A stretch of 64,000 nucleotides of DNA from Octopus vulgaris (Eukaryota): assembly GCA_951406725.2 (NCBI GenBank), contig OX597819.1, positions 8,494,001 through 8,558,000 of the forward strand. The letters are read 5' to 3'. Positions within the stretch are counted from its first letter, which is position 1, and every line of letters starts with the position of its first letter. The position numbers and the translations under genes were made by a program. This document shows positions 3,854 through 56,358 of this stretch, piece after piece. Below the pieces are notes generated by a model that was not told where the DNA came from, made no database searches, and saw only the letters and a list, made by a program, of their open reading frames with translations.

Positions 3854-4347
3854 TCTTTATATTTGAAAATGACGTTGTGTGTTGTCTGTCTCCTACGATT
3901 TAGATTCCTAACTACTCCCACATTTTGCGGTGCAGTTTAACCAAAACCGGGTATCTTATAGTCGTGATTCATATCGAGCCCTTCTGGGTATAGTCTACGA
4001 TGAGTCTACGATTTAAAAAGAAATTTACCATCATTTTTTTCCATTTTAATGCATTTTTTCGCTATTATATAAGGGAATTAACTCTCTAAAAATGTCTACG
4101 TTGAGTCAACGATTTAAAAAAAATTTACCATAATTTTTTTCCATTTTAATGCATTTTTCGCTATTATATAAGGGAAATAACTCTCTAAAAATGTCTACGA
4201 TGAGTCAACGATTTAAAAAAAAAATTACCATCATTTTTTTTTTCAATTTTTAATGCATTTTTTTGCTATTTTTTGGCTATAACTCTCTAAAATGCTTATA
4301 TAGTTATTTCCCTTACAAACCCGAGCAACGCCGGGCGATACTGCTAA
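3854..4347 (+). mobile_element. Non-autonomous Helitron with internal ~100-bp tandem repeat
   Basis: 5' A|TC start (atctttatat) followed by ttgtgtgttgtctgtc. 3' hairpin cccgagcaacgccggg about 8 nt before CTAA (degenerate CTRR). Three ~100-bp units start at 3993, 4094 and 4193. Confidence 0.7.
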
Positions 4348-4649
4348 CATATATATATATATCAATCGCTTTGTGTACAATATAGAAATAGTGAGCCAGT
4401 AAGAATCTTTCGCCTCAATATCCTTATCCAGTCGAAGTTTACTGAGTCGTCCAAATACTCCGATTCTTTCTCTTTTAAACATATGCTTTATGTTACATCT
4501 TTCATTTCCGTGAAGAAGAAGGGAAATGAGAAACTCTGAGTAACAATTTATGAAGTTTGAGCTTCTAATAAACTATAATATATATTTTACTTCCACTTTA
4601 CTCCTTCATGCTCATACTAGCGCGCCAAAAACGCGCATGCGCGCACAAA

Positions 4650-4855: not shown

Positions 4856-4968
4856 CGTATGAATGGATGCACATACGTGTATTTATCTCTCACCCAATGT
4901 CTTATTCTCTCTCTATGCCTTCATGTATGTATAAACGTACATATATATATATATATATATATATATGT

Positions 4969-7000: not shown

Positions 7001-7186
7001 GCGCAGGAGTGGCTGTGTGGTAAGTAGCTTGTCTACCAACCGCAAGGTTCCAGGTTCAGTCCCACTGCGTGGCACCTTGGGTAAGTGTCTTCTACTATAG
7101 CCTCGGGCCGACCAAGGCCTTGTGAGTGGATTTGGTAGACGGAAACTGAAAGAAGCTCGTCGTATATATGTATATATATATATATG

Positions 7187-7228
<42 letters not shown>

Positions 7229-7457
7229 TGTGTGTGTTTGTGTGTCTGTGTTTGTCCCCTAGCATTGCTTGACAACCGATGCTGGTGTGTTTATGTCCCC
7301 GTCACCTAGCGGTTCGGCAAAAGAGACCGACAGAATGAGTACTGGGCTTACAAAAGAATAAGTCCCGGGGTCGAGTTGCTCGATTAAAGGCGGTGCTCGA
7401 GCATGGCCGCAGTCAAATGACTGAAACAAGTAAAAGAGTAAAAGAGTAAAGAGTAAA
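7001..7457 (+). mobile_element. tRNA-derived SINE family A, full length, with internal (TA)n(TG)n
   Basis: Head gcgcaggagtggctgtgtggtaag...ggttcagtccc, CORE-like ccttgggtaagtgtctt, tail ...gactgaaacaagt(aaaagagt)n. More than 10 near-identical copies in the window. Confidence 0.9.
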
Positions 7458-8284
7458 ATAACCCTCACCTTCTTTTCCTTTCTTTTCTTTTTTTATTTAT
7501 TTTCTGAGATGTTGTTGGTTAACGAAGAAAGACATTACCCACAACATTCATAGTCAGTCTTTTTATGGATCACAGAAGCTTTTTATGGATGAGGTAAAAA
7601 AAAAAAGGTGGTGGGGCGGGGCGGGCATGAATTATCACTAGACGAATGGCCAAGTTAGAATGCTTGTTGCAACAGATTGGGATTCTGCTGCCGAAGAGAT
7701 CCCATGAACAGATGCTGGTGCTGATGTCAAACAGAGCTACGCATTATGTCTAACAGTTAAATATTGGTTTAAACATTTATAGGAGAGCGCGCTGGATGAA
7801 ACGTGGGAGATATATCTCAAGTAGCATTATTAAAATGTTTACTGTATCACAAATAATTAGGAGCCATTGTCGCGGATCTAAATGTTGTTTTCCGCAGTGC
7901 TAATCAGATTACAAATAACTATTCATCTGGATAAGGACGCCAATCCGTCGGTTGTAACTTTATTAGAAAGAAGGGAAAGGAAGCGAAATATCGATTCTTA
8001 CCGAATATCCGAATATTTGTAAGAATATGTCTCTTGCAGCACACACTCCACTCGCGTGCGTGAGCGCATATACAAGTATGGACCTATAAAGGTACATAGA
8101 TATATGTATGTATATATATATATATATATAAAAACTTAGATAAACTAGGATTATTCGAATCCTGTTTAAGTCAAGTTTTGTTTAAGTCAAGTTATATACA
8201 CATATATATTTATATGCATATACATATATTTAGACATATATATACACACACATATACACATATATATTCATATGCTCACATGTA

Positions 8285-10263: not shown

Positions 10264-10670
10264 ATGAAAGAATGGAGTTGAACGACGAATTAACAAAATT
10301 CCTTTATTTTCGACATATGTTTCGAAGGCTGCATATTCCTAATTGCGAAGTCATCTAAAAGTTTTTTTGTGCATCTTGATGTTGACATAATTTCCTTGCT
10401 TTTCCTGATGAGAAAGCGGCATAATATACTCCTTATTCCTTCGCAATTAGGAATATGCAGCCTTCGAAACATATGTCGAAAATAAAGGAATTTTGTTAAT
10501 TCGTCGTTCAACTCCATTCTTTCATATATTTATATTTAAAAAAAAAAACATACAAATTTCCACACGAAAGCACGTAACTTCATACGTGTTTTCTCTGATG
10601 TGAATTTGCTAACCAGGTATCGGTTAACCGAATTATCCATAACAAGATAATTCATTCAACTACTCAAATA
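10264..10670 (+). mobile_element. Hammerhead-bearing inverted-repeat element, family H2 (PLE pLTR-like), flanked by (TACA)n
   Basis: 87-bp inverted arms at 10264-10350 and 10439-10525, apparently perfect. The 3' segment tcggttaaccgaatt...gataattcattca recurs at about 46775-46825. Confidence 0.75.
10400..10482 (+). ncRNA. Type I hammerhead ribozyme (intact core)
   Basis: Stem I ttttc/gaaaa; CUGAUGA at 10405-10411; long stem II (gaaagcggcata / tatgcagccttc) enclosing an internal hairpin; GAAA at 10466-10469; stem III ACA-UA-UGU (palindrome ACAUAUGU); GUC cleavage predicted after 10477. Confidence 0.85.
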
Positions 10671-11111: not shown

Positions 11112-11485
11112 TCACTTTTACTCTTTTACTTGTTTCAGTCATTTGACTGCGGCCATGCTGGAGCACCGCCTTTAGTCGAGCAAATCGACCCCGGGACTTA
11201 TTCTTTGTAAGCCCAGTACTTATTCTATCGGTCTCTTTTTCAGAACCGCTAAGTAACGGGGACGTAAACACACCAGCATCGGTTGTCAAGCAATGCTAGG
11301 GCGACAAACACAGACACACAAACACACACATATATATACATATACATATATACGACAGGCTTCTTTCGGTTTCTGTCTACCAAATCCACTCACAAGGCTT
11401 TGGTCGGCCCGGGGCTATAGCAGAAGACACTTGCCCTAGGTGCCACGCAGTGGGACTGAACCCGGAACCATGTGGCTGGTTAGTA
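11112..11485 (-). mobile_element. SINE family A
   Basis: Reverse complement of 7001-7457; extreme 5' end lost. Confidence 0.85.
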
Positions 11486-12303
11486 AAATTTTTACAGCTC
11501 CAGTGATGGTCTGGATCTGCATGTGTGAATGTGCGTGTGTCTGTGTATGTGTGCCTTCTTGTTTGTCCTCCACTACCGCTCCTTTAGGTCTCCCTAACTT
11601 TTTGATGGTTCCTTTAATGTTGGCTCCTTTAGGTCTCCCTAATTTATTGATTCAATAATAAGAGAACGATAAAATAAGTACCAGGCTTAGGAAAAAATAA
11701 GTATTAGAGTGAATTTGTTCGACTAAAACCCTCCGCGGTGGTGCCTCAGCATGGCTGCTGTTAAAACGACTGAAATAAGTAAAAGATAAATGATAAAGAT
11801 ATACCTATACGTATGTATGTATGTATGTATGTATGTATGTATGTATGTATGTATTTATGTATGTATGCATGTAATACATACACATAGGCTTACATACACA
11901 AATACACAGACAGAAACATTTTTTCAAGCATATATATTCACTTACATCATCATCACCACCAACAACAACACTACCACCACCACCACCACCACCAACACCA
12001 TCGCCAACAAAACCACCGCCACCTATCCTTGATCACAATCTAGATATGTAATGTATGAGACATAAGGCAGTCAAGCACAATATGTAATGTTTTTACTGTT
12101 CTTCCGGTAGCCAGAAATATTCGACCTAGGGCTGGTTTTCTCCTTGTCTAACAGCTTCTGACAATAGCCATATTACATTCGATTTATCGATATTTGTTAT
12201 TTTCAATTCTACTAGATTATTAGCAATTTTCATGTATGTGCGTGTTATATATGTGTGTATAGGTGTGCATCTCTGTATATACATCATCTATACATACAGG
12301 CCT

Positions 12304-12640: not shown

Positions 12641-12996
12641 TAGAAGAATGAGAGAAAGAACGAAACGAAGGAAGGAGGGAAGAGAGAGACGGAGACAGAT
12701 TAACAGAGAAAGAGAAAGAATGAGAAAAAATTAAGAGAAGAGAAGAGACGATCCATATATAGCAGCCAATGCTATAAAATATGGTCGTGACTTTGACTTA
12801 TATGATATAAACTGTATGTCCTAGAATACACGCATTGTAATGTTTCATTCATACATTTATCCATTCATAAAGTAATATCTACGTTAGTGATAGACAGGTG
12901 AACTCTCTTAATTAATGTTTTTGAATCTGGAGGATGGCTACTTGAAATTATTTTCAGCACGATTTTTCAGGGTTCGCTACACATTATATTGCTATT

Positions 12997-13384
12997 GGAG
13001 GCGCAACGGCCCAGTGGTTAGGGCAGCGGACTCGCGGTCATAGGATCGCGGTTTCGATTCTCAGACCGGGCGTTGTGAGTGTTTATTGAGCGAAAACACC
13101 TAAAAAGCTCCACGAGGCTCCGGCAGGGGATGGTGGTGATCCCTGCTGTACTCTTTCACCACAACTTTCTCTCACTCTTACTTCCTGTTTCTGTTGTACC
13201 TGTATTTCAAAGGGGCCGGCCTTGTCACTCTCTGTGTCACGCTGAATATCCCCGAGAACTACGTTAAGGGTACGCGTGTCTGTGGAGTGCTCAGCCACTT
13301 ACACGTTAATTTCACGAGCAGGCTGTTCCGTTGATTCGGATCAACCGGAACCCTCGTCGTCGTAACCGACGGAGTGCTTCCACA
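12997..13384 (+). mobile_element. tRNA-derived SINE family B, full length, 9-bp TSD
   Basis: tRNA-like head with A and B boxes; ends ...gtaaccgacggagtgcttcca. TSD attgctatt at 12988-12996 and 13385-13393. Confidence 0.9.
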
Positions 13385-13399
13385 ATTGCTATTCCAGCG

Positions 13400-13443
<44 letters not shown>

Positions 13444-13921
13444 GACAGACAGACAGACAGATCAATAGAAAGGTAAATGTATGTGTATGCAAGTATGAAT
13501 CCATTTACGCATCTTGTATGTAAGCCCTTCAGACACAACAATCTTCGATTATATTGATATTTTTTTTTTACTACAGACTTATTGTGTATGTTTATCAGTT
13601 TTTTTTTTTTCGTGTTTAGTAAGAAACAATGCCCTGCCTGTATCTAGTCACGTTTTGAAACCTGGTCACCCTCATCCTCTCATTGAAACATCATAGAGCC
13701 GTTGCATCGCTGCGTTTCGATGAAGGCTGCAAAGGATCAAGCGAATGATGCTAAAGTGAATAAAATCATTATTCTCTGATTTAAAATCATTTAACGCTTG
13801 ACAACTGCTTCACGAATGCTGTATCCCTGAATTGATTTTCGCTTTGTATTCTGCTATTAATATAACTTCCATACTTAATATTTTATTTTTAGTGCGTATA
13901 TGGGTGTGTATTTAATTCTTT

Positions 13922-14304
13922 GGAGGCGCAATGGCCCAGTGGTTAGGGCAGCGGACTCGCGGTCGTAGGATCGCGGTTTCGATTCCCAGACCGGGCGTTG
14001 TGAGTGTTTATTGAGCGAAAACACCTAAAGCTCCACGAGGCTCCGGCAGGGGATAGTGGTGATCCCTGCTGTACTCTTTCACCACAACTTTCTCTCATTC
14101 TTACTTCCTGTTTCTGTTGTACCTGTATTTCAAAGGGCCGGCCTTGTCACTCTCTGTATCACGCTGAATATCCCCGAGAACTACGTTAAGGGTACACGCG
14201 TATGTGGAGTGCTCAGCCACTTACACGTTAATTTCACGAGCAGGCTGTTCCGTTGATCGGGTCAACCGGAACGCTCGTCGTCGTAACCGACGGAGTGCTT
14301 CCAC
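13922..14304 (+). mobile_element. SINE family B, full length, 10-bp TSD
   Basis: Near-identical to the 12997 copy. TSD atttaattct at 13910-13919 and 14305-14314, so an independent insertion rather than a tandem duplication. Confidence 0.9.
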
Positions 14305-15139
14305 ATTTAATTCTATAACGTATGGCAGTGTTATGAAGAGATATGTTCTTTTTTACTTGACTTCCGCATTTTATAGTTCAAAGTTTTGCAACTATCCCTT
14401 GTTCTAAATGCATGGTAACCAACGGAAAACTGTTGTCCTTTGTGTCTGATGTAACAGTTAGTGTCGTAATGTTTGCAAATTTCTTCTCTTCATTTATATT
14501 TGTTCATTGTAACATTTACCAGTAGATGCTACGTGTTTCAGGTTAGTGGTTTCATGCTTTTGAGAAGCATTTTTTATTCGATGTACAAACTTACAAACAC
14601 ACACATACACACTCACAATTATTTATTTGCGTGTATGATGTATACCTATAAAAATATTAATACAGACATGCATGCATATGTATGCATGTATGTTTATATG
14701 GTTAAATGAAGACTATAATATATAAGGTAAGCGAATCTAAGATATTTTTCTGTAATTGAAATTAAAACCAAAATGAAAACACTATTCATTAGCGCTAATG
14801 AAAATTACTCAAAAGGCTGATGGAAGAGGAAACTATATATTCAGTTGAGCAGAAATTAAACAGAAATCAGCGTGATTGGGAGGTGTGAGTCCGGTCTTTG
14901 GTGTCTATAATGACAAATGCCAAAATCATAAGTAAAGTAAATCCAACCCTCTTATTTTATTTCAGGCCAATGTGACGAGCATTTAGATTTTGTATAATCA
15001 TAATTTCATTGAGCTTTGGTTGCATGATACTTCTGACAGCCGGCGCCACCACCGCTTTTTGTTGACACGGATTAAGTCATATTGTCGTTCTATGTTACTC
15101 CAATTCATCGGAGATCGAACGGCATTGTAGCAAATCCAT

Positions 15140-19194: not shown

Positions 19195-19577
19195 CTTTTA
19201 TTCTTTTACTTGTTTCAGTGTTTTGACTACGACCATGCTGGAGCACCACCTTTTAGTCGAGCAAATCGACAGCAGGACTTATTCTTTGTAAGCCTAGTAC
19301 TTATTCAATCGGTGTCTTTTTGCCGAACCGCTAAGTTAGGTGGACGTAAACACACCAGCATCGGATCTCAAGCGTTGTTGGAGGGGGGGGGACGAACATA
19401 CACACACGCTCATATATATATATACATATATGCAAAGGGCTTCTTTCAGTTTCCGTCTACCAAATCCACTCACAAAGCTTTGGTCGGCCCGAGGCTATAG
19501 TAGAAGACGCAGTGGGACTGAACCCGGAACCATGTGGTTGGTAAGCAAGCTACTTACCACACAGCCACTCCTGCGCC
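19195..19577 (-). mobile_element. SINE family A
   Basis: Reverse complement of family A with a small internal deletion. Confidence 0.85.
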
Positions 19578-19935
19578 TGTTCAATTTAATTTCAAATAGG
19601 CCATGTGCCCAGAGCCCGGAGATTGCTTCGAGGTACATACACACCTAGTTATAAGCAGACTCACGTATTCTCATATAGCGTTTACTGATCACTTTATGAT
19701 GATATCAAACGATATCGAAGAATATTCGCTGCTTTAAAATGTTACGTTGAGCACTGATAACACTAACTCTGACCGAACATTTGCATTAGATGTGTATATA
19801 TGACTTACGGTCCTTGTTAGCTACACATCTACGGTTGTATTTAGCTTTCCAGAATGACCAAATTATATCTCACACGCAAATTTCAGGCTCAAAACTTTAG
19901 TGGAGAACGTATTGTGTGTGTGTGTGTCTGTGTTA

Positions 19936-21364: not shown

Positions 21365-22438
21365 CATCCTTTTATTCGTTTCAGCCCTGCGGCTGCGGAT
21401 CTGCTGGAGCTCCACCGTGGTTTTGCTTATTTCCTCAGTCTTTGGTGTGTCACATAACCACCCTTGCATGTGCCTTTGTCCCGGCTGTTGGCTCATTTGG
21501 GGTATAAGGGAGTTTGATTCCCTCATTGCCCTCGTCATGTCGGGCTTTTGCTTCTTCCGTTATTGTGGAGAAGAGGATGTCTAGTTTCTTTTTGGAGACA
21601 TCTACTTCCACCTTATGCAGATCTCATAATTTTTGTGGCAAGGCATTGAAGAGCTGCGGGCCCATGAACTCTAGGTTAGTTAGTTAGTTAATTCTTTGGC
21701 TCAAAAAGCAAAAAGCAAGGCCATGTAGGGGGACATGGACTTATGTACAGGGTGGTGTTCAGGTAAAGAGTTCAGGCCACTTGTGGTTAAGGGAGACTTT
21801 GAACCGAGCGGTCGTCGGCATCTTCACCATCTCGTCTAGCAGCTTATTCCACGGATCCGCAAACCGGACGGAGAAAGCCCCTCTCCTTCGATTGAGATGA
21901 AATCGTCGCAGATAGAGCTTTTCGGAATGACCCCGCAGCCGACGCTCTGGAGCAGGAGTGAAGAACAGCTCTTTCGAGAGGTTACACTTTCCGCGTATGA
22001 TGTTGTGAGCAAGAATGAGATCACCACGGCGTCGTCGTTTTTCTAGAGAATAAAGGTCGAGCGTCGAGGTTATTGCAGTACTGAGTCCTGAATTTAGATG
22101 GAGTGGTTGGCACCTATGGTACAATAGAATGCCGTCAATTTCTGGCATTTCTGTAATACGCAATGTCGAAATTAGGTACTAGTCCTTCAAGAATTTTCCC
22201 TATGTAGATCATTACACATCTGACCCACCTTTGTTCAAGAGAGTAAAGTTTTTGTTCAGCCTCTCCTTGTAGGTCATCCACTACACTGTTTCAGTCTTTT
22301 TAGTGTAGTGGCATTGGACTGCTTCGAGCTTCAGTGTTACTTTGGCAGCATGTGGTGACCATAACTGGAAGAAGAAAGGTTGTCCACAGGGTCAACACAG
22401 CTTCTGGGACTCTTGTTTTGAAGGACCTTAGTATCTAT
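21365..22438 (-). mobile_element. Old CR1-group LINE 3' region (ORF2 C-terminus plus 3' end), interrupted by a younger CR1 insertion
   Basis: Minus-strand remnants ILRSFKTR..., [43 protein letters not shown]|LEFMGPQLFNALP, KKLD, with frameshifts and stops. Confidence 0.75.
21679..22066 (-). mobile_element. Young 5'-truncated CR1-type LINE with (TAAC)n tail
   Basis: Uninterrupted TLDLYSLEKRRRRGDLI...RGHSEKL...FSVRFADPWNKL...FKVSLN, the CR1 ORF2 C-terminal signature. Tail gttagttagtta; aggtta at both junctions (21673-21678, 22067-22072). Confidence 0.9.
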
Positions 22439-24159: not shown

Positions 24160-24199
<40 letters not shown>

Positions 24200-24200
24200 C

Positions 24201-24443
24201 TTTACTTAAAGCAGCAGAAAATTCAACAAAACCTGTTACTCTGAGTTTCCCGTTGCCGTTCATCGGACAGTTTTTGCTAGAAATGCGGATAGAGGCAAAA
24301 ACTGTCTGATGAACGGCAACGGGAAACTCAGAGTAACAGGTTTTGTTGAATTTTCTGCTGCTTTAAATAAAGCATATTACTCTACCACTGGTATTTGAGT
24401 ACTCTTTTTCCCACCTTGTTTCACATTTATGTGTTTACTCCGG
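24201..24443 (+). mobile_element. Hammerhead-bearing inverted-repeat element, family H1, inserted in (TA)n
   Basis: 77-bp inverted arms at 24201-24277 and 24295-24371, 17-nt spacer, then a ~72-nt tail (gcatattactctaccactggt...ttactccgg). (TA)n on both sides. Homologues at 38713 and 55541. Confidence 0.85.
24302..24339 (+). ncRNA. Minimal type I hammerhead ribozyme
   Basis: Stem I ctgt/acag; CUGAUGA at 24306-24312; stem II a-cg-GCAA-cg-g (A.G at the first pair); GAAA; stem III ACUC-A-GAGU; GUA cleavage predicted after 24335. The mirror copy in the left arm has CCGAUGA. Confidence 0.75.
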
Positions 24444-24545
24444 TATATATATATATATATATATACAAGAAAGAATATATATATAATTCGCTAACCATTT
24501 AGATGGTATTTTAATAATACCATCCTATATATATATATATATATA

Positions 24546-26586: not shown

Positions 26587-27224
26587 GTACATGTAAATAT
26601 ACACGCATGCAAGCATACATTCATGTACATATAAAGAGAAAAAGTTATGCACTTATACACACAGAGAAACACACTGACAGACATTTGCACACAAAAGCGA
26701 ACGCACAAACATTAGCAAAAGAACAAACATACTTATACATAGAAATACACATGCACACACAGTCACAAGGAACACAAAAACACACATATGCATGGAAACA
26801 CTAAAACACACGTACAGACATTGACATGCACATATAAGCCGAACGGACTGCCAGAATAGGAAAGACAGCATCAACGTGCCGTGCGTGCACAGACAAACAT
26901 AAAGGCGCACATCTGCGGAGGTATAGTTACAGACAACTGGTACACGCATCAATGCACACAAAAACTTAGCATGTCTTCAAACGGTTATGGCCATACCTGA
27001 CCTAGATATCACCAACTTATAGCTAGACCCTGGCAGTATTCGGGATGCATATGCAGTATGCACACAGACACAACATACACATGTATAGCGACGAATACAG
27101 ACAGTATATCTATACTTAAAGCGTCTGTGTGTATATATACGTATGTATATATATGTATATATATATATATATATAAGGATAATATCGATATTTAAATATC
27201 GATATTATGAAGTGGCCAGCATGG

Positions 27225-27477
27225 GAAAAATACCATACAAAGGTAATAATTTTTTTACAACAAAAAATAAGGGTGTCTGAGAGACACCACCATGCAGAAA
27301 TAGCAGTCAAAACCCTGACTCTAAGAACCACGTTAAATGACACCGGAAATGACAAATGAACCACCATTTAACGTGGTTCTTAGAGTCAGGGTTTTGACTG
27401 CTATTTCAGCATGATGGTGTTTCTCAGACACCTTTATTTTTAGTTGTAAAAAAATTATTACCTTTGTATGTATTTTC
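27225..27477. repeat. Long inverted repeat (~113-bp arms, 25-bp spacer) next to (TA)n
   Basis: 27225-27339 is the reverse complement of 27365-27477 with few mismatches. The motif tgacaccggaaatgacaaatg from the spacer recurs at about 28632. Confidence 0.85.
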
Positions 27478-27478
27478 A

Positions 27479-27547
<69 letters not shown>

Positions 27548-27548
<1 letters not shown>

Positions 27549-27864
27549 GGAGTAAATGTAAGGATAACCAAGTTAAGCAAATCGATATTCAAAAAATATC
27601 AAATACATTTAATACAAAAAATGTACATATGAATACATATACAAATATCCGACTTTTACAGAGTGGAAATAATATTAGGAATTAAGGGTGTTGAGTGGGA
27701 GCTTTATGAGTCCTACAAAACACCTTTAATCCCGGATATTATTTCCATTCTGCGTAAGTCGGACATCTCGTATGTATACATATGTATGTTTTTTGTATTA
27801 GATGTATTTGATATTTTTTCTCTATATCGAATTACTTAACTTGCTTGTCCTTACAGTTACTCTT
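27548..27864. repeat. ~315-bp imperfect palindrome (foldback/MITE-like)
   Basis: gagtaaatgtaaggataaccaagttaag...aatatcaaatacat...ccgactt...ggaaataatat...attaagggtgtt is mirrored by aacacctttaat...atattatttcc...aagtcgg...atgtatttgatatt...cttaacttg...ccttacagttactc; centre near 27705. Confidence 0.8.
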
Positions 27865-28325
27865 CTGCCGTCTCTAGTTAAAATTTCTTGAGCACTATGA
27901 AGTGTATTCTATACAGAGTATACCTGTCTCTAATCTCTCTCACTCCCACTCTCTCTCTATACACACACACATACACATGCAGATATATATATATATATAT
28001 GTATATGTAGAAAAATACAAACTGGGACAAGAACGCAAAACATTTTGAAGACGATACAAAAAAACACGGACGGGACATTCGAAGCCTTCAATCTTCAGTC
28101 AAGAACCGGATCATCTTCGCAATTTCGGCTGATTAATCTTGAGATTGCTCCGATCTGGCCAGCCCCAAGGAAAATCTAAGCCAAGCGCATTAGATTCCTT
28201 GGAAGAAAGCCTCGAACGTATACAAAACAAGGACGGAAAACCGGACGATGTTACACGAATAAGAATACAAAAATACGTAAAAACAATAATGATAATAATA
28301 ATAACAACAAAAAGAGGACGTCACA

Positions 28326-30309: not shown

Positions 30310-30316
30310 TATATAA

Positions 30317-30682
30317 GGCGCAGGAGTGGCTGTGTGGTAAGTAGCTTGCTAACCAACCACACGGTTGCGGGTTCAGTCCCACTGCGTGGCATCTTGGGCA
30401 AGTGTCTTCTGCTATAGCCCCGGGCCGACCAATGCCTTGTGAGTGGATTTGGTAGACGGAAACTGAAAGAAGCCTGTCGTATATATGTATATATATGTAT
30501 ATGTGTGTTTGTGTGTCTGTGTTTGTCCCCCTAGCATTGCTTGACAACCGATGCTGGTGTGTTTATGTCCCCGTCCCTTAGCGGTTCGGCAAAAAGAGAC
30601 CGATAGAATAAGTACTAAAAGGTGGTGCTCCAGCATGGCCGCAGTCAAATGACTGAAACAAGTAAAAGAGTAAAAGAGTAAA
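30317..30682 (+). mobile_element. SINE family A (internal deletion in 3' module)
   Basis: Complete head and tail; lacks the gggcttacaaag...ggggtcgat segment. Confidence 0.9.
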
Positions 30683-30766
30683 ATTATTATTATTATTATA
30701 AATTATTATTATTATTTGAGGAATAAAATCCAAACTTACAGGGAAAAAAATTTATATATATGTATG

Positions 30767-37945: not shown

Positions 37946-38049
37946 AATTTTCAAAAGAAAACCAGAGCGTACGTAAATGCATACTTATGTACATATGAAT
38001 AATTGCATTGGACATAATTAAATACATAAACAAGTATAACAATATATAT

Positions 38050-38466: not shown

Positions 38467-38589
38467 TACTTAAAACAGTTTGATTCGGCTCCCTGCGACT
38501 TGAAGTTTTGCAGGCCTCTATCAGAATTCAGTCCGTCCCTTTCAGACTATAAATGAGTGTGTATGTGTGTATGTATATATATATATCTA

Positions 38590-38687
<98 letters not shown>

Positions 38688-38712
38688 GTATATATATATA
38701 TATATATATATA

Positions 38713-38930
38713 CTTTATTCACAAAAAGCAGCAGAAAATTCAACAAAACCTGTTACTCTGAGTTTCACGTTCCCGTTCGTCAGACAGTTTTTGCTAGAAC
38801 GGGAACGTGAAACTCAGAGTAACAGGTTTTGTTGAATTTTCTGCTGCTCTTGAATAAAGCATATTACTCTACCACTGGTATTTGAGTATTCTTTTTTCCA
38901 CCTTGTTTCACATTTATGTGTTTACTCCTG
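38713..38930 (+). mobile_element. Hammerhead-bearing inverted-repeat element, family H1, in (TA)n
   Basis: Same arm and tail as the 24201 copy. The forward arm is 5'-truncated at gaacgggaacgtgaaac (38797). Confidence 0.85.
38750..38787 (-). ncRNA. Minimal type I hammerhead ribozyme (fully canonical)
   Basis: Minus strand: ctgt-CUGACGA-ACG-ggaa-CGU-GAAA-CUC-A-GAG-UA-acag. All core nucleotides and three stems present. Confidence 0.85.
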
Positions 38931-43348: not shown

Positions 43349-43541
43349 GGCAGGAGTGGCTATGTGGTATGTGGTAAGTAACTTACTAACCAACCACATG
43401 GTTCCGGGTTCAGTCCCACTGCGTGGCATCTTGGGCAAGTGTCTTCTGCTATAGCCCCCGGGCCGACCAATGCCTTGTGAGTGGATTTTGTAGACGGAAA
43501 CTGAAAGAAACCTGTCGTATATATGTATATATATATATATC

Positions 43542-43574
<33 letters not shown>

Positions 43575-43779
43575 TTGTCCCCTAGCTTTGCTTGACAACC
43601 GATGCTGGTGTGTTTACGTCCCCGTCACTTAGCGGTTCGGCAAAAAGAGACCGACAGAATAAGTACTGGGCTTACAAAAGAATAAGTCCCGGGGTCGATT
43701 TGGTCGACTAAAGGTGGTGCTCCAGCATGGCCGCAGTCAAATGACTGAAACAAGTAAAAGAGAAAAAGAGTAAAGAGTA
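43349..43779 (+). mobile_element. SINE family A, full length
   Basis: Matches 7001-7457. Confidence 0.9.
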
Positions 43780-46635: not shown

Positions 46636-46685
<50 letters not shown>

Positions 46686-47090
46686 GAAAGAATGGAGTCG
46701 AACGAAGATGTTAACAAAATTCCTTTACTCTCGACATATGTTTCGAAGACAGCATTTTTTCATTCCAAAGGTTTCGGTTAAACGAATTTTCCATGCTGAC
46801 GATAACATAGGATAATTCATTCACCTACTTATATATATATATACTTATGCGCGAGTATGTATGTATTTATGTGTGTATGTATGTGTGTGTATGTGTGTGT
46901 ATCTTTGTGTTTGTCCCCCCCACCACCGCTTGACAACCGGTGTTGGTGTGTTTATGTCACCGTAACATATCGGGTCGGCAAAAATGATCGATAGAATAAG
47001 TACTAGCGATTGATTCGTTCGAGTAAAAATTCTTCAACGTAGTGCCCAGCTTAAATGACTGAAACAAGTTTTGACTGAAACAAGTAAAAA
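46503..47090 (+). mobile_element. Diverged SINE family A split at its internal (TA)n by an H2 element
   Basis: 5' half at 46503-46635 and 3' half at about 46900-47090, with the H2 fragment between. Confidence 0.7.
46680..46830. mobile_element. H2-family fragment (inverted arm with 3' half of hammerhead, joined to 3' end segment)
   Basis: atgaaagaatggagtcgaacga...aacaaaattcctttactctcgacatatgtttcgaag matches 10264-10330; tcggttaaacgaatt...gataattcattca matches 10620-10660. Confidence 0.75.
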
Positions 47091-51534: not shown

Positions 51535-51980
51535 GAAGGGGACATTACAAGGACAGTTCACAATCTGAGGGTCGGATGTTACATAAAGAAAGGAGAGAAT
51601 GGTGAAATGAGATTCAAAGTATACATAGTATAGAAAATATGTAAGGCAGTCCTCCTGATACAAAAGAACCTCCAACTAGAGCCCTTTAACGAACTCCTCA
51701 GATCCAGGATCACTCTGACCAACCAAGGGCACAAGCCCTCACCCAAATGTTGTACTTCACTCTAGAGGCGCATGATTAGAGTACGTCCATTCAACTTAAC
51801 CATTTTTGTCATAGTCTCCCACCTTTTAGCAAATTCCCTTCCCTCTCCACTTTGCTTTCCAAGTAGAACTCAAAAGAGCTGATGAGGGCTTAACCGAAAA
51901 GGAAGAAGCTTTCCTTCAGTCCTTTCAACCTTGTTCACCACACAACCTCTTTCGCTATAACCACTAGACAGAAAAAAAAA
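51535..51980 (-). mobile_element. Degenerate LINE 3' end, probably L1/Tx1 group
   Basis: Minus strand FFCLVVIAKEVVW*TRLKGLKE..FLFG*ALISSFEFYLESKVERE resembles the AKxxIWxxR C-terminal block of L1/Tx1 ORF2. Confidence 0.5.
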
Positions 51981-52750
51981 CAACTTCAATGATAATACAC
52001 TGGGAAAAATACCGACATAAAGAAAAAAAAAACAAATAAAGAAAAAAATAATGTACCAGTTACCATTAATGGCAACGACTTACTATTATCATGTGAGACA
52101 GTTTTGTTTAGACTGACAAACCGGTGAAGGCAAACTTTCCAGGTATAATTATTAAGGCCTGGAACGAAAAAAATGTCAACACCATCTCAGCATTTTTTTC
52201 CCTCTCTAGCACTGCCCGGAACCAGCAGAATGAGCAGAATATGAGACATCAAAGAAAAACAGTACCAAAAATAACTGGAACTCTGTATATGAAAAACTAA
52301 TACGAACAAGACCATACGAACAATAGTAGTATTAACAATGTTACCTACAATCCAAAAGATAACCCCGTTATACACTGCTCACATCTTATGCAATGCACTT
52401 TCAATGTGATCACACAAATAATAAACTCCCTCTAGACAACAAATACACTCCACGATTGATAACTACCCAGGTAGTAAGAGACCTCAAGGGGAGCTAAACA
52501 GCGGAAGGTCTTCAGAGAAGCCATTCCCATCATAAAAGAGTTTCGGCTCTTAACTTCTTAGACTGTAAGGGCTTAGACCACACCCAAGTCAGGACACCTG
52601 GATACCCCTCTGCTGTATCGTGTGTTATAGTCTGCATTGCAACCCTCCTGAATGATTAAGGTTCACCAGAGCCAAGGTATCTTGCGTATTCCCCATACCC
52701 AAAACAATTTTACATGCAGAGAGGGAAAAAAAGGACTGCCGGTGGTAATA

Positions 52751-53175
52751 CTCTTTTTCTGTTTTTTTCTTTTTTTTACTTGTTTCAGTCATTTGACTGC
52801 GGCCATGCTGAAGCACCGCCTTTTAGTCGAGCAAATCGACCCCGGGACTTATTCTTTGTAAGCCCAGTACTTATTCTATCGGTCTCTTTTGCCGAACCGC
52901 TAAGTGACGGGGACGTAAACACACCAGCATCGGTTGTCAAGCAATGCTAGGGGGGACAAACACAGACACAAACACATACACACACATATATATATATATA
53001 TATACATATATACGACAGGCTTCTTTCAGTTTCCGTCTACCAAATCCACTCACAAGGCATTGGTCGGCCCGGGGCTATAGCAGAAGACACTTGCCCAAGA
53101 TGCCACGCAGTGGGACTGGACCCGGAACCATGTGGTTGGTTAGCAAGCTACTTACCACACAGCCACTCCTGCGCC
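52751..53175 (-). mobile_element. SINE family A, full length
   Basis: Near-perfect reverse complement of 30317/43349. Confidence 0.9.
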
Positions 53176-53785
53176 TGTAGAAATCACATTAAACTGTCGA
53201 TTACATAACGTTAATTATAAGAGCAGATGTTTTGTAGTAAGAGCTACGGATGGGTAGTAAGTTCCCAGTAAGTGCCGAGTCTGCGATACAGAAGGCAGAT
53301 ATCCAGTGAAATCATCCAGATGTGATGCTGGTGTGAAAGGTGTCTCACTGTTTGGAGATAGAGAAGCCCAACCAGTGAGCCAAAATAGTCAAATCGTTCA
53401 CTTGCTAGAAATAATGCTCTTATCTTTCCCCTCCTTGTTTAAAAGTAAGGTAGGATAGTCACGGTTGGATGGTTGTGACCATTAGTCTTCTCAATCAAGG
53501 TAGAATTAAACAACAAAAGCAAGATGAGGATAAAGTGTTTTGCTGGTGAACCAAACAACCTATCAAGGAGGCAGACCTCTCTCTCTCACTCTCTCTCTCT
53601 CTCTCTCTTTCTCCTCCTCCTCCACTCCTCCTCCGCCTCCTCCTTTTTCTCTCCTTTGTCGTCTTTTAGTGTCGCTTCTACATTATTTCTGATTCTCTAT
53701 CTCTCTTCGATTTCTACCTCTGCATCTTCCATTTTGTATCCCTCTAACCTTTTTACAATATTAATGCATTTTTTTTCTGCATCTG

Positions 53786-54359: not shown

Positions 54360-54361
<2 letters not shown>

Positions 54362-54499
54362 CGCAGGAGTGGCTGTGTGGTAGTTAGCTTGCTAACCAAC
54401 CGTGGCATCTTGGGCAAGTGTCTTCTGCTATAGACTTGGGCGTCGACCAAGGCCTTGTAAGTGAATTTGATAGACGGAAACTGAAAGAAGCCTGTTGTG

Positions 54500-54546
<47 letters not shown>

Positions 54547-54760
54547 TCGTTTGTGTGTCTGTGTTTGTCCCCCTAGCATTGCTTGACAACCGATGCTGGT
54601 GTGTTTATGTCCCCGTTACCTAGCGGTTCGGCAAAAGAGACCGATAGAATAAGTACTGGGCTTACAAAAGAATAAGTCCCGGGGTCCAGTTGCTCGATTA
54701 AAGGCGGTACTCCAGCATGGCCGCAGTCAAATGACTGAAACAAGTAAAAGAGTAAAAGAG

Positions 54761-54762
<2 letters not shown>
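54360..54762 (+). mobile_element. SINE family A (B-box region deleted)
   Basis: Matches family A except for loss of acatggttccgggttcagtcccactg. Confidence 0.85.
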
Positions 54763-55503: not shown

Positions 55504-55540
<37 letters not shown>

Positions 55541-55542
<2 letters not shown>

Positions 55543-55696
55543 GGAGTAAACACATAAATGTGAAACAAGGTGGAAAAAAGAGTACTCAAATACCAGTGCT
55601 AGAGTAATATGCTTTATTTAAAGCAGCAGAAAATTCAACAAAACGTGAAACTCAGAGTAACAGGTTTTGTTGAATTTTCTGCTGCTTTAAATAAAG
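55541..55696 (-). mobile_element. Family H1 element, opposite orientation, both arms truncated (partial hammerhead only)
   Basis: Tail ccggagtaaacacataaatg...gtaatatg; arms 55612-55644 and 55664-55696; gtgaaactcagagtaacag retained; (TA)n both sides. Confidence 0.85.
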
Positions 55697-55983: not shown

Positions 55984-56358
55984 TGGAAGCACTCCGTCGG
56001 TTACGACGATGAGGGTTCCGGTTGATCCGATCAACGGAACAGCCTGCTCGTGAAATTAACGTGTAAGTGGCTGAGCACTCCACAGACACGTGTACCCTTA
56101 ACGTAGTTCTCGGGGATATTCAGCGTGACACAGAGAGTGACAAGGCCGGCCCCTTGAAATACAGGTACAACAGAAACAGGAAGTAAGAGTGAGAGAAAGT
56201 TGTGGTGAAAGAGTACAGCAGGGATCACCACCATCCCCTGCCGGAGCATCGTGGAGCTTTTTAGGTGTTTTCGCTCAATAAACACTCAGAACGCCCGGTC
56301 TGGGAATCGAAACTGCGATCCTATGACCGCAAGTCCGCTGCCCTAACCACTGGGCCAT
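55984..56358 (-). mobile_element. SINE family B, near full length
   Basis: Reverse complement of 12997-13384. Confidence 0.9.

Follow-up and report, generated by a model that had tools for sequence, protein, structure and literature searches.

Penelope-like elements (PLEs) that bear an endonuclease (EN+) leave a distinctive insertion signature, consisting of an inverted 5'-truncated copy and a tail on one side only (PMC8557442, PMC3846280, PMC4209133). A bias towards (TA)n targets is described for Neptune, Hydra and Naiad, and a hammerhead ribozyme (HHR) for all but Naiad and most Chlamys elements among those these sources cover (PMC8557442, PMC3846280). The metazoan PLE hammerheads are of the dimer type and cut weakly in vitro (PMC4209133). 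PAc, a Poseidon element of Anolis carolinensis, cuts and extends both target strands, with two internal start sites bounding the tail, and its HHR is dispensable for insertion in vitro (PMC11167929). The genome of Octopus vulgaris holds 190 Penelope-like families, which make up 6.8% of its sequence; 31 of them, averaging kilobases, were recently active (PMC13282606).

Here we describe, in a 64,000-nucleotide stretch of O. vulgaris DNA (hereafter, the window), three copies of a short inverted-repeat element that are likely head-to-head pseudo-LTR (pLTR) stubs, with a unit of ~160 nt, of a hammerhead-bearing, (TA)n-targeting PLE, and that were likely made by a reverse transcriptase (RT) primed on both target strands. 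This kind of insertion is already known, and no change of classification follows from it.

Three inverted-repeat copies embedded in (TA)n arrays

The original prediction placed three copies of the element in the window, and all three are real, with the start of copy 1 corrected from 24201 to 24200 and the others lying at 38713-38930 and, reversed, at 55541-55696; copy-versus-copy BLAST returned E values of 1e-50 to 1e-71. The proposed layout of inverted arm, junction, forward arm and tail recurs in each of them, with a tail of 71 nt rather than ~72 nt, and all six copy ends abut (TA)n arrays, as had been claimed. Since a TA 8-mer starts at 7.2% of window positions, the chance of three insertion points falling at one is ~4e-4. 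Any target-site duplication would be hidden inside the (TA)n.

Copy 1 sits between a left (TA)n target array (24160-24199) and a right one (24444-24465). Its minus-strand inverted arm (24200-24282) carries a hammerhead with a U4C core but no tail, and its outer end marks the putative priming site 1. A junction filler of ~12 nt (24283-24294), whose first 2-3 nt may belong to the inverted arm, leads into the plus-strand forward arm (24295-24372), a pLTR-like unit up to site 1, and then into the 71-nt plus-strand tail (24373-24443), which runs from 3' end 1 to 3' end 2. An AATAAA on the plus strand (24366-24371) lies directly 5' of 3' end 1 (24372) and 30 nt past the predicted cleavage site, in agreement with the spacing of ~30 nt given earlier. 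In copy 2, a (TA)n array (38570-38712) precedes a minus-strand inverted arm with a full hammerhead (38713-38799); the plus-strand part (38797-38930) comprises a 5'-truncated forward arm, which lacks CUGAnGA and extends to 38859, and a tail (38860-38930). Copy 3 is enclosed by (TA)n arrays at 55507-55540 and from 55697 onwards; its tail (55541-55611) and forward arm (55612-55644) lie on the minus strand (55541-55644), and its plus-strand inverted arm (55642-55696) begins inside stem II and lacks CUGAnGA.

The outer end of the inverted arm is common to all three copies (...AATAAAG|TA, with AGTAAAG in copy 1), and the inner junctions differ, both as originally described: in place of the filler of copy 1, copies 2 and 3 show a 3-nt microhomology, namely GAA common to both arms at 38797-38799 and GTT on the minus strand at 55642-55644. 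In each copy, one arm ends at the equivalent of 24372 and the other 71 nt beyond, and in three of three the tail-less arm extends further 5' than the tailed one. Variants at the equivalents of 24317 and 24322 are common to both arms of a copy and differ between copies. Such shared arm variants are what a single template source would give, and gene conversion could also yield them; the letters that copies 2 and 3 have at these positions, T at 24322 and G at 24317, appear in none of four public sequencing runs at a 2% listing threshold.

An old, diverged relative lies at 4493-4577 on the plus strand (nhmmer E 2e-4, and fold). It is a short inverted repeat with GAAA-CUCUGAG-UA and AATAAA but without CUGAnGA; the centre of its stem III has changed from A to U with the palindrome kept, and the AATAAA lies downstream.

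The hammerhead motif and its predicted folding

A type I hammerhead had been assigned to the intact arms and to each copy. The full core is present in two of the six arms, whereas the inverted arm of copy 1 reads CCGAUGA (U4C), and CUGAnGA is missing from the forward arm of copy 2 and from both arms of copy 3, which therefore carries no ribozyme. The RNA motif descriptor check proposed at the outset returned three strict matches in the window, two of them with four contiguous stem I pairs and 11-12 of 14 pairs, compared with a mean of 0.01 such matches in 200 block shuffles. These two are the forward arm of copy 1, with predicted cleavage after 24335, and the inverted arm of copy 2 on the minus strand, with predicted cleavage after 38754. 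The third, at 51879-51913, is weak, with a 3-pair stem I and a UC site, and is within chance. A relaxed scan gave 4 matches against 0.25 expected, adding the U4C inverted arm of copy 1 and a second family at 10405. The suggested Rfam hammerhead search yielded no match at gathering score, and single arms at E<=10 returned only generic hairpins.

The hammerhead of copy 1 (24295-24346, plus strand) comprises stem I at 24295-24305/24336-24346, C3 at 24306, GAAA at 24323-24326 and a near-palindromic stem III at 24326-24334, with a predicted GUA cleavage site after 24335. That of copy 2, on the minus strand, has C3 at 38783, a 3-bp stem II with a GNRA loop and predicted cleavage after 38754. Stems I (10-11 pairs) and II (2-3 pairs) are predicted to form, stem II without G10.1-C11.1. 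Stem III has a pair probability of 0.0 in the monomer, and the near-palindrome gives a predicted self-duplex of -7.4 kcal/mol; in these fold models, the self-pairing of stem III points to a dimer for hammerhead activity. In the monomer, a misfold that pairs the core with the strand of stem III is predicted to be favoured (-13.4 vs -7.4 kcal/mol), and for the dimer a rough sum of -22.6 kcal/mol is still above that of two misfolded monomers (-26.8 kcal/mol). Whole copies are predicted as hairpins of -142, -111 and -56 kcal/mol, and the hammerhead of an inserted copy is thus predicted to be sequestered in its hairpin.

Among the three arms spanning the hammerhead, no compensatory pair change was found, and the contig tables give unlinked variants only. 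The common variants in public contigs are mostly structure-neutral (N7, a stem I mismatch with G>A at 22-38%, and the N of the GNRA loop). U4C accounts for 36-43% of depth; this change decreases hammerhead activity in vitro (PMC3088659). A 45-codon frame at 24309-24443 has its ATG in the hammerhead core and runs through the tail with a single stop, at a site that reads C in ~4% of depth. The frame is not kept in copy 2. In PAc, too, the ORF begins within the hammerhead; a protein search with the frame returned no match here.

The family in public sequencing contigs

The element, scored as at least half its words, occurs in 20 of the 24 runs listed, which come from 9 studies under 4 organism labels; none of these runs is listed as RNA, which is uninformative either way. 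We aligned the contigs of four runs to 24262-24451, placing 1539, 5284, 1748 and 369 (the last being run X8), with summed contig depth not to be read as a copy number. In all four runs, the contigs reveal a large family in which the 3' ends are fixed at two positions and the inverted arms end close to a single 5' point. Behind site 1, loose (AT)n ends occur in 41 contigs of run X4 and 15 of run X10, with an agreement of 0.94-0.95; the site 1 end is therefore family-wide. Diverged subfamilies have the tail in common, with loose ends before 24362, 24366 and 24405. If the window is typical, its copy density of 47 per Mb (95% range 10-137) corresponds to ~130,000 copies per 2.8-Gb genome.

Ten distinct joints (7 of the 14 in table 5 and 3 in table 5c) run from 24280-24284 in the inverted arm to 24336-24423 in the forward arm; where the intervening letters are known, there are mostly 1-4 of them, and the sides of the joints at 24280-24284 are only 18-23 letters long. 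A preferred 5' end close to TTCTAG, 11-16 nt before C3, is suggested by these joints, in a clustering that is biased by design, as the aligned stretch began at 24262 and visible arm ends range from 24280 to ~40 nt on. Excluded from the analysis were the junction letters 24283-24289, which had almost no cover, four opposite-strand joints of ambiguous direction, and two contigs joining at exactly 24336 that are maybe a repeated inverted-arm piece. One of the 14 joints in table 5 goes back 83 nt, forming a partial tandem with no HHR shown in it.

Exact-pattern loci elsewhere (7 genome contigs and 12 viral contigs) were attributed to chance: none contains a descriptor hammerhead or extends past the seed, and the best nhmmer value among them is E 0.008 over ~24 nt. 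An exact-pattern scan of metagenome contigs gave 0 loci.

Candidate A-to-I editing of the hairpin

Run X8, a single run only guessed to be RNA, comes from an individual different from those of all the DNA runs. Seven of 19 variant rows are private to it, and all seven are A>G or T>C. These changes are family-level, and not assignable to copy 1, with six of them within 24324-24336 (plus strand). The A>G changes at 24325, 24326, 24330, 24335 and 24336 correspond to A14, A15.1, the loop centre, H17 and N1.1, and the T>C changes fall at 24334 (U16.1) and 24359. Each accounts for 3.4-11.3% of depth in X8 over 5-21 contigs (H17, 11.3% in 21 contigs; N1.1, 8.3% in 18 contigs) and for <=0.08% in the three other runs, whereas U4C and the stem I variant have similar shares in all four. 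All seven lie in the arm and none in the tail (p 0.01). Over 24323-24336 on both strands, 6/6 adenosines without a 5' G are changed against 0/3 with one (Fisher p 0.012), for a span chosen after the sites were seen; over the whole arm, the 5'-G test gives 0/8 vs 7/40 (p 0.58). Fisher tests on contig counts are inflated, control variants also being significant, and depth shares were used instead.

ADAR editing is known for 5'-G depletion, and octopus has the strongest hyper-editing signal with an exceptional hairpin-forming share, the repeats involved being unassigned (PMC5625713). On this pattern of base changes, we regard the X8-private changes as likely to reflect editing of the hairpin by ADAR. 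Clearly less likely are that they represent DNA variation at a few highly expressed loci, noise from assembly or sequencing, or an enrichment for variants unable to cleave. X8 is a different and small sample (369 contigs), in which more variants pass 2%, and at five of the altered positions a substitution would prevent cleavage; against this, ADAR would account for the type of all seven changes (chance 4e-6 to 6e-4) and each is seen in 5-21 contigs, the changes are 40- to over 1000-fold rarer in the three other runs, and those at the loop centre and N1.1 should not block cleavage. A rise in depth from 24336 to 24340, 1.72-fold in X8 vs 1.05-1.11 in the others, would fit cleavage products and was set aside, as contigs cannot show starts and no start site was listed.

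Origin of the insertions

By extension from PAc, a PLE protein with RT and GIY-YIG domains would nick both (TA)n strands and start two cDNAs at two internal sites of one RNA. Extension of the left target strand from site 1 would give the tail-less inverted arm, and the tailed forward arm would come from the right strand, extended from site 2. Joining of the cDNA 3' ends would then use a 3-nt microhomology, as seen in copies 2 and 3, or, as in copy 1, a short filler. The inverted arm would often reach a preferred 5' end 11-21 nt upstream of C3, where the copied RNA probably starts; that RNA could be either a full element's leader or a short parasitic one. In this model, folding of the ribozyme is predicted to be confined to the unpaired source RNA and to require a dimer through the ACUCAGAGU stem III. 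Read-through RNA of inserted copies would instead form a 33-78-bp hairpin that hides the ribozyme and is likely edited by ADAR, including at A14, A15.1 and H17. Two-strand priming of this sort parallels L1 twin priming.

None of the 142 window ORFs matched an RT or GIY-YIG Pfam family, with one weak unrelated match overall. A partner PLE is nonetheless plausible because O. vulgaris has 190 Penelope-like families, 31 of them recently active, and the hairpin family may already be in that 190-consensus library. Our search, which covered the literature, found no publication on the hairpin family or on editing of PLE hammerheads, and a search of the text of the PMC11167929 supplement gave 0 matches. 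Most of the original prediction is supported, namely the PLE pLTR origin, the minimal type I hammerhead, the (TA)n targeting, the inverted 5'-truncated partner, the high copy number and the non-coding nature. The rejection of a tandem retrozyme also stands, as none of the three copies is head-to-tail. The claim of a separate pLTR-only family mobilised in trans is not established, since autonomous PLEs, as described in PMC8557442, PMC3846280 and PMC4209133, ordinarily give the same layout.

As to the copied RNA, we consider it somewhat more probable that the stubs derive from a full PLE transcript than from a separately amplifying short element. That the unit is a dedicated non-autonomous element, with its own short RNA and mobilised in trans, is a tenable reading that we place below even chances. 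It draws on the 5' point that copies 1 and 2 share as the end of their inverted arms, together with the 10 joints at 24280-24284; on 32 X4 contigs that are loose before 24295 and go TA-rich ~11 nt upstream, with an agreement of only 0.58; on several subfamilies with a common tail; on a density of ~47 copies per Mb, should the window be typical; and on the occurrence of such PLEs in Chlamydomonas (PMC8557442, PMC9977147). However, reverse transcription beginning in the upstream pLTR of a full transcript would produce a fixed 5' end just as readily—PAc RT starts 111-118 nt into its ORF (PMC11167929)—and the short unitigs are compatible with a long upstream or downstream continuation. Moreover, the 31 recently active Penelope-like families of O. 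vulgaris average kilobases (PMC13282606).

Two further readings dispense with two-strand priming. In one, the palindromes arise by fold-back, through self-priming on one cDNA or on an antisense template, a mechanism put forward for Adineta Penelope; this also yields head-to-head palindromes and microhomology junctions (PMC3846280), and it agrees with the near-identity of the arms within a copy and with three X4 joints, CTAG-CAA, that have a self-complementary centre. We judge it improbable. What speaks against fold-back is that, in three of three copies, the arm that extends further 5' has no tail; the tailed arm holds sequence absent from the first cDNA, and a further template switch would be needed, whereas PAc extends both strands in vitro (PMC11167929). 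The other, a fixed palindromic master (a MITE, a fold-back DNA element or a hairpin RNA) copied whole and later losing parts of its centre by slippage, strikes us as very improbable. Long palindromes are deletion-prone, and copy 2 can be derived from copy 1 by removing 31 nt that lie between GAA repeats. Yet the 71-nt tail lies outside the inverted repeat in all three copies, so that the two ends do not both carry terminal inverted repeats; a DNA transposon would have no use for a hammerhead or a poly(A) signal; the letters between the arms vary among joints (table 5c); and it is the forward arm that has lost sequence, both in the window copies and in the 10 joints. Two-strand priming by a PLE remains our preferred reading.

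Two other candidates were rejected. For a tRNA-derived SINE, ARAGORN reported 0 genes in the window and there was no Rfam match, although a decayed head could escape both; and Naiad has no canonical HHR, whereas one is present here. Five unit motifs gave 0 matches in the supplement listing Naiad_Obim and Naiad_Ovul, where line breaks could hide one.

Other repeats in the window

The window holds six large local inverted repeats. A second hammerhead-bearing inverted element (10265-10524) follows an (ACAT)n array and has a partial second copy at 46684-46758. It carries CUGAUGA at 10405, a 54-nt stem II region and a stem III AUAU loop, with predicted GUC cleavage after 10477; both of its arms end at the same base, without a tail, and the forward arm reaches further 5'. 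Two long imperfect palindromes by (TA)n (27179-27482 and 27549-27866; -172 and -162 kcal/mol), in which no hammerhead core was found, are possibly other PLE stubs or MITEs.

On the minus strand, 21762-22178 encodes a fragment of 139 aa that resembles the C terminus of a LINE ORF2 and has no Pfam match; the best of 8 matches is 87% to an O. vulgaris hypothetical protein and the next 52%. Presumably, it belongs to a CR1/L2-like family. A tandem of about three 99-bp units (3993-4292) lies beside a ...ACGCCGGGCGATACTGCTA end and (TA)n. A young dispersed SINE-like repeat of ~390 nt, 96-98% identical between copies, occurs at 12995-13387, 13920-14308 and 55984-56356, and also at 4968, 8889 and 45210; an Atlas search with a SINE-like ORF gave no match. 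A ~400-nt repeat with an internal microsatellite has over 15 copies (7001-7478, 11115-11486, 19195-19580, 30316-30683, 43350-43779, 52749-53178, 54360-54762 and others), and a ~240-nt repeat recurs at 38043, 45655, 48956, 51264 and 56892.

Implications

The family constitutes a compact natural read-out of PLE integration, in which start sites, arm polarity and junctions are countable in thousands of copies. Such counts would test two-strand priming against self-priming, a question left open in PMC8557442 and PMC11167929. PLE stubs arriving as hairpins are also a concrete candidate for the hyper-edited repeats of octopus (PMC5625713), and edits on ribozyme core residues, if true, would be a simple host brake. 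The boldest form of this picture, unlikely as a whole, is that a dedicated 160-nt Penelope parasite, whose stem III pairs two RNAs for two-strand priming, planted perfect hairpins by the order of 100,000 in the (TA)n arrays of octopus, that these would be, with sister families, a main source of octopus hyper-editing, and that ADAR would disarm the ribozyme at A14, A15.1 and H17.

Comparison with known systems

The copies resemble Neptune, Hydra and Penelope/Poseidon insertions in their head-to-head inverted pLTR, one-sided tail and small palindromic helix III (PMC8557442, PMC3846280, PMC4209133). With these EN+ PLE insertions they also share a type I hammerhead, a microsatellite target and the occurrence of most motifs as single truncated pieces (PMC8557442, PMC3846280, PMC4209133). 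Unlike published EN+ PLEs, no ORF was seen here and the tail measures 71 nt rather than 30-40; assignment to a clade would require the protein. Stem II also lacks the extra base plus G10.1-C11.1 of published min-HHRs.

PAc shares with the copies two internal RT start sites bounding the tail, an AT-rich target, a hammerhead shortly upstream of the start sites and the extension of both strands, but PAc is autonomous and tested in vitro, whereas the sites here are read from genomic ends only (PMC11167929). In Drosophila virilis Penelope, the 3' end of an intron lies at the 5' end of helix I (PMC4209133); here, a pyrimidine-rich TTCTAG stands directly before stem I, and acceptor-like words of this kind occupy 0.4% of window positions.

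Animal non-LTR retrozymes are likewise short and non-coding, carry a type I hammerhead and are proposed PLE derivatives; they form head-to-tail tandems and circular RNAs with mostly canonical HHRs, in contrast to the head-to-head, tailed copies described here (PMC7229834; bioRxiv 10.64898/2026.07.22.740005). Chlamys MRC1 and Chlamys-N4_cRei offer a parallel as non-coding PLE partners with short microsatellite insertions (median 128 bp), but they belong to green algae, target (C)n or (CA)n and mostly have no canonical HHR (PMC9977147). Lizard Penelope is heavily edited, and octopus was left out of the repeat-level analysis in that study (PMC5625713). Like the palindromic Harbinger repeat of Xenopus and lizard Penelope, which self-fold and are hyper-edited without a nearby partner (PMC5625713), the copies are predicted to fold on themselves; unlike those substrates, the candidate edits here fall on ribozyme core positions.
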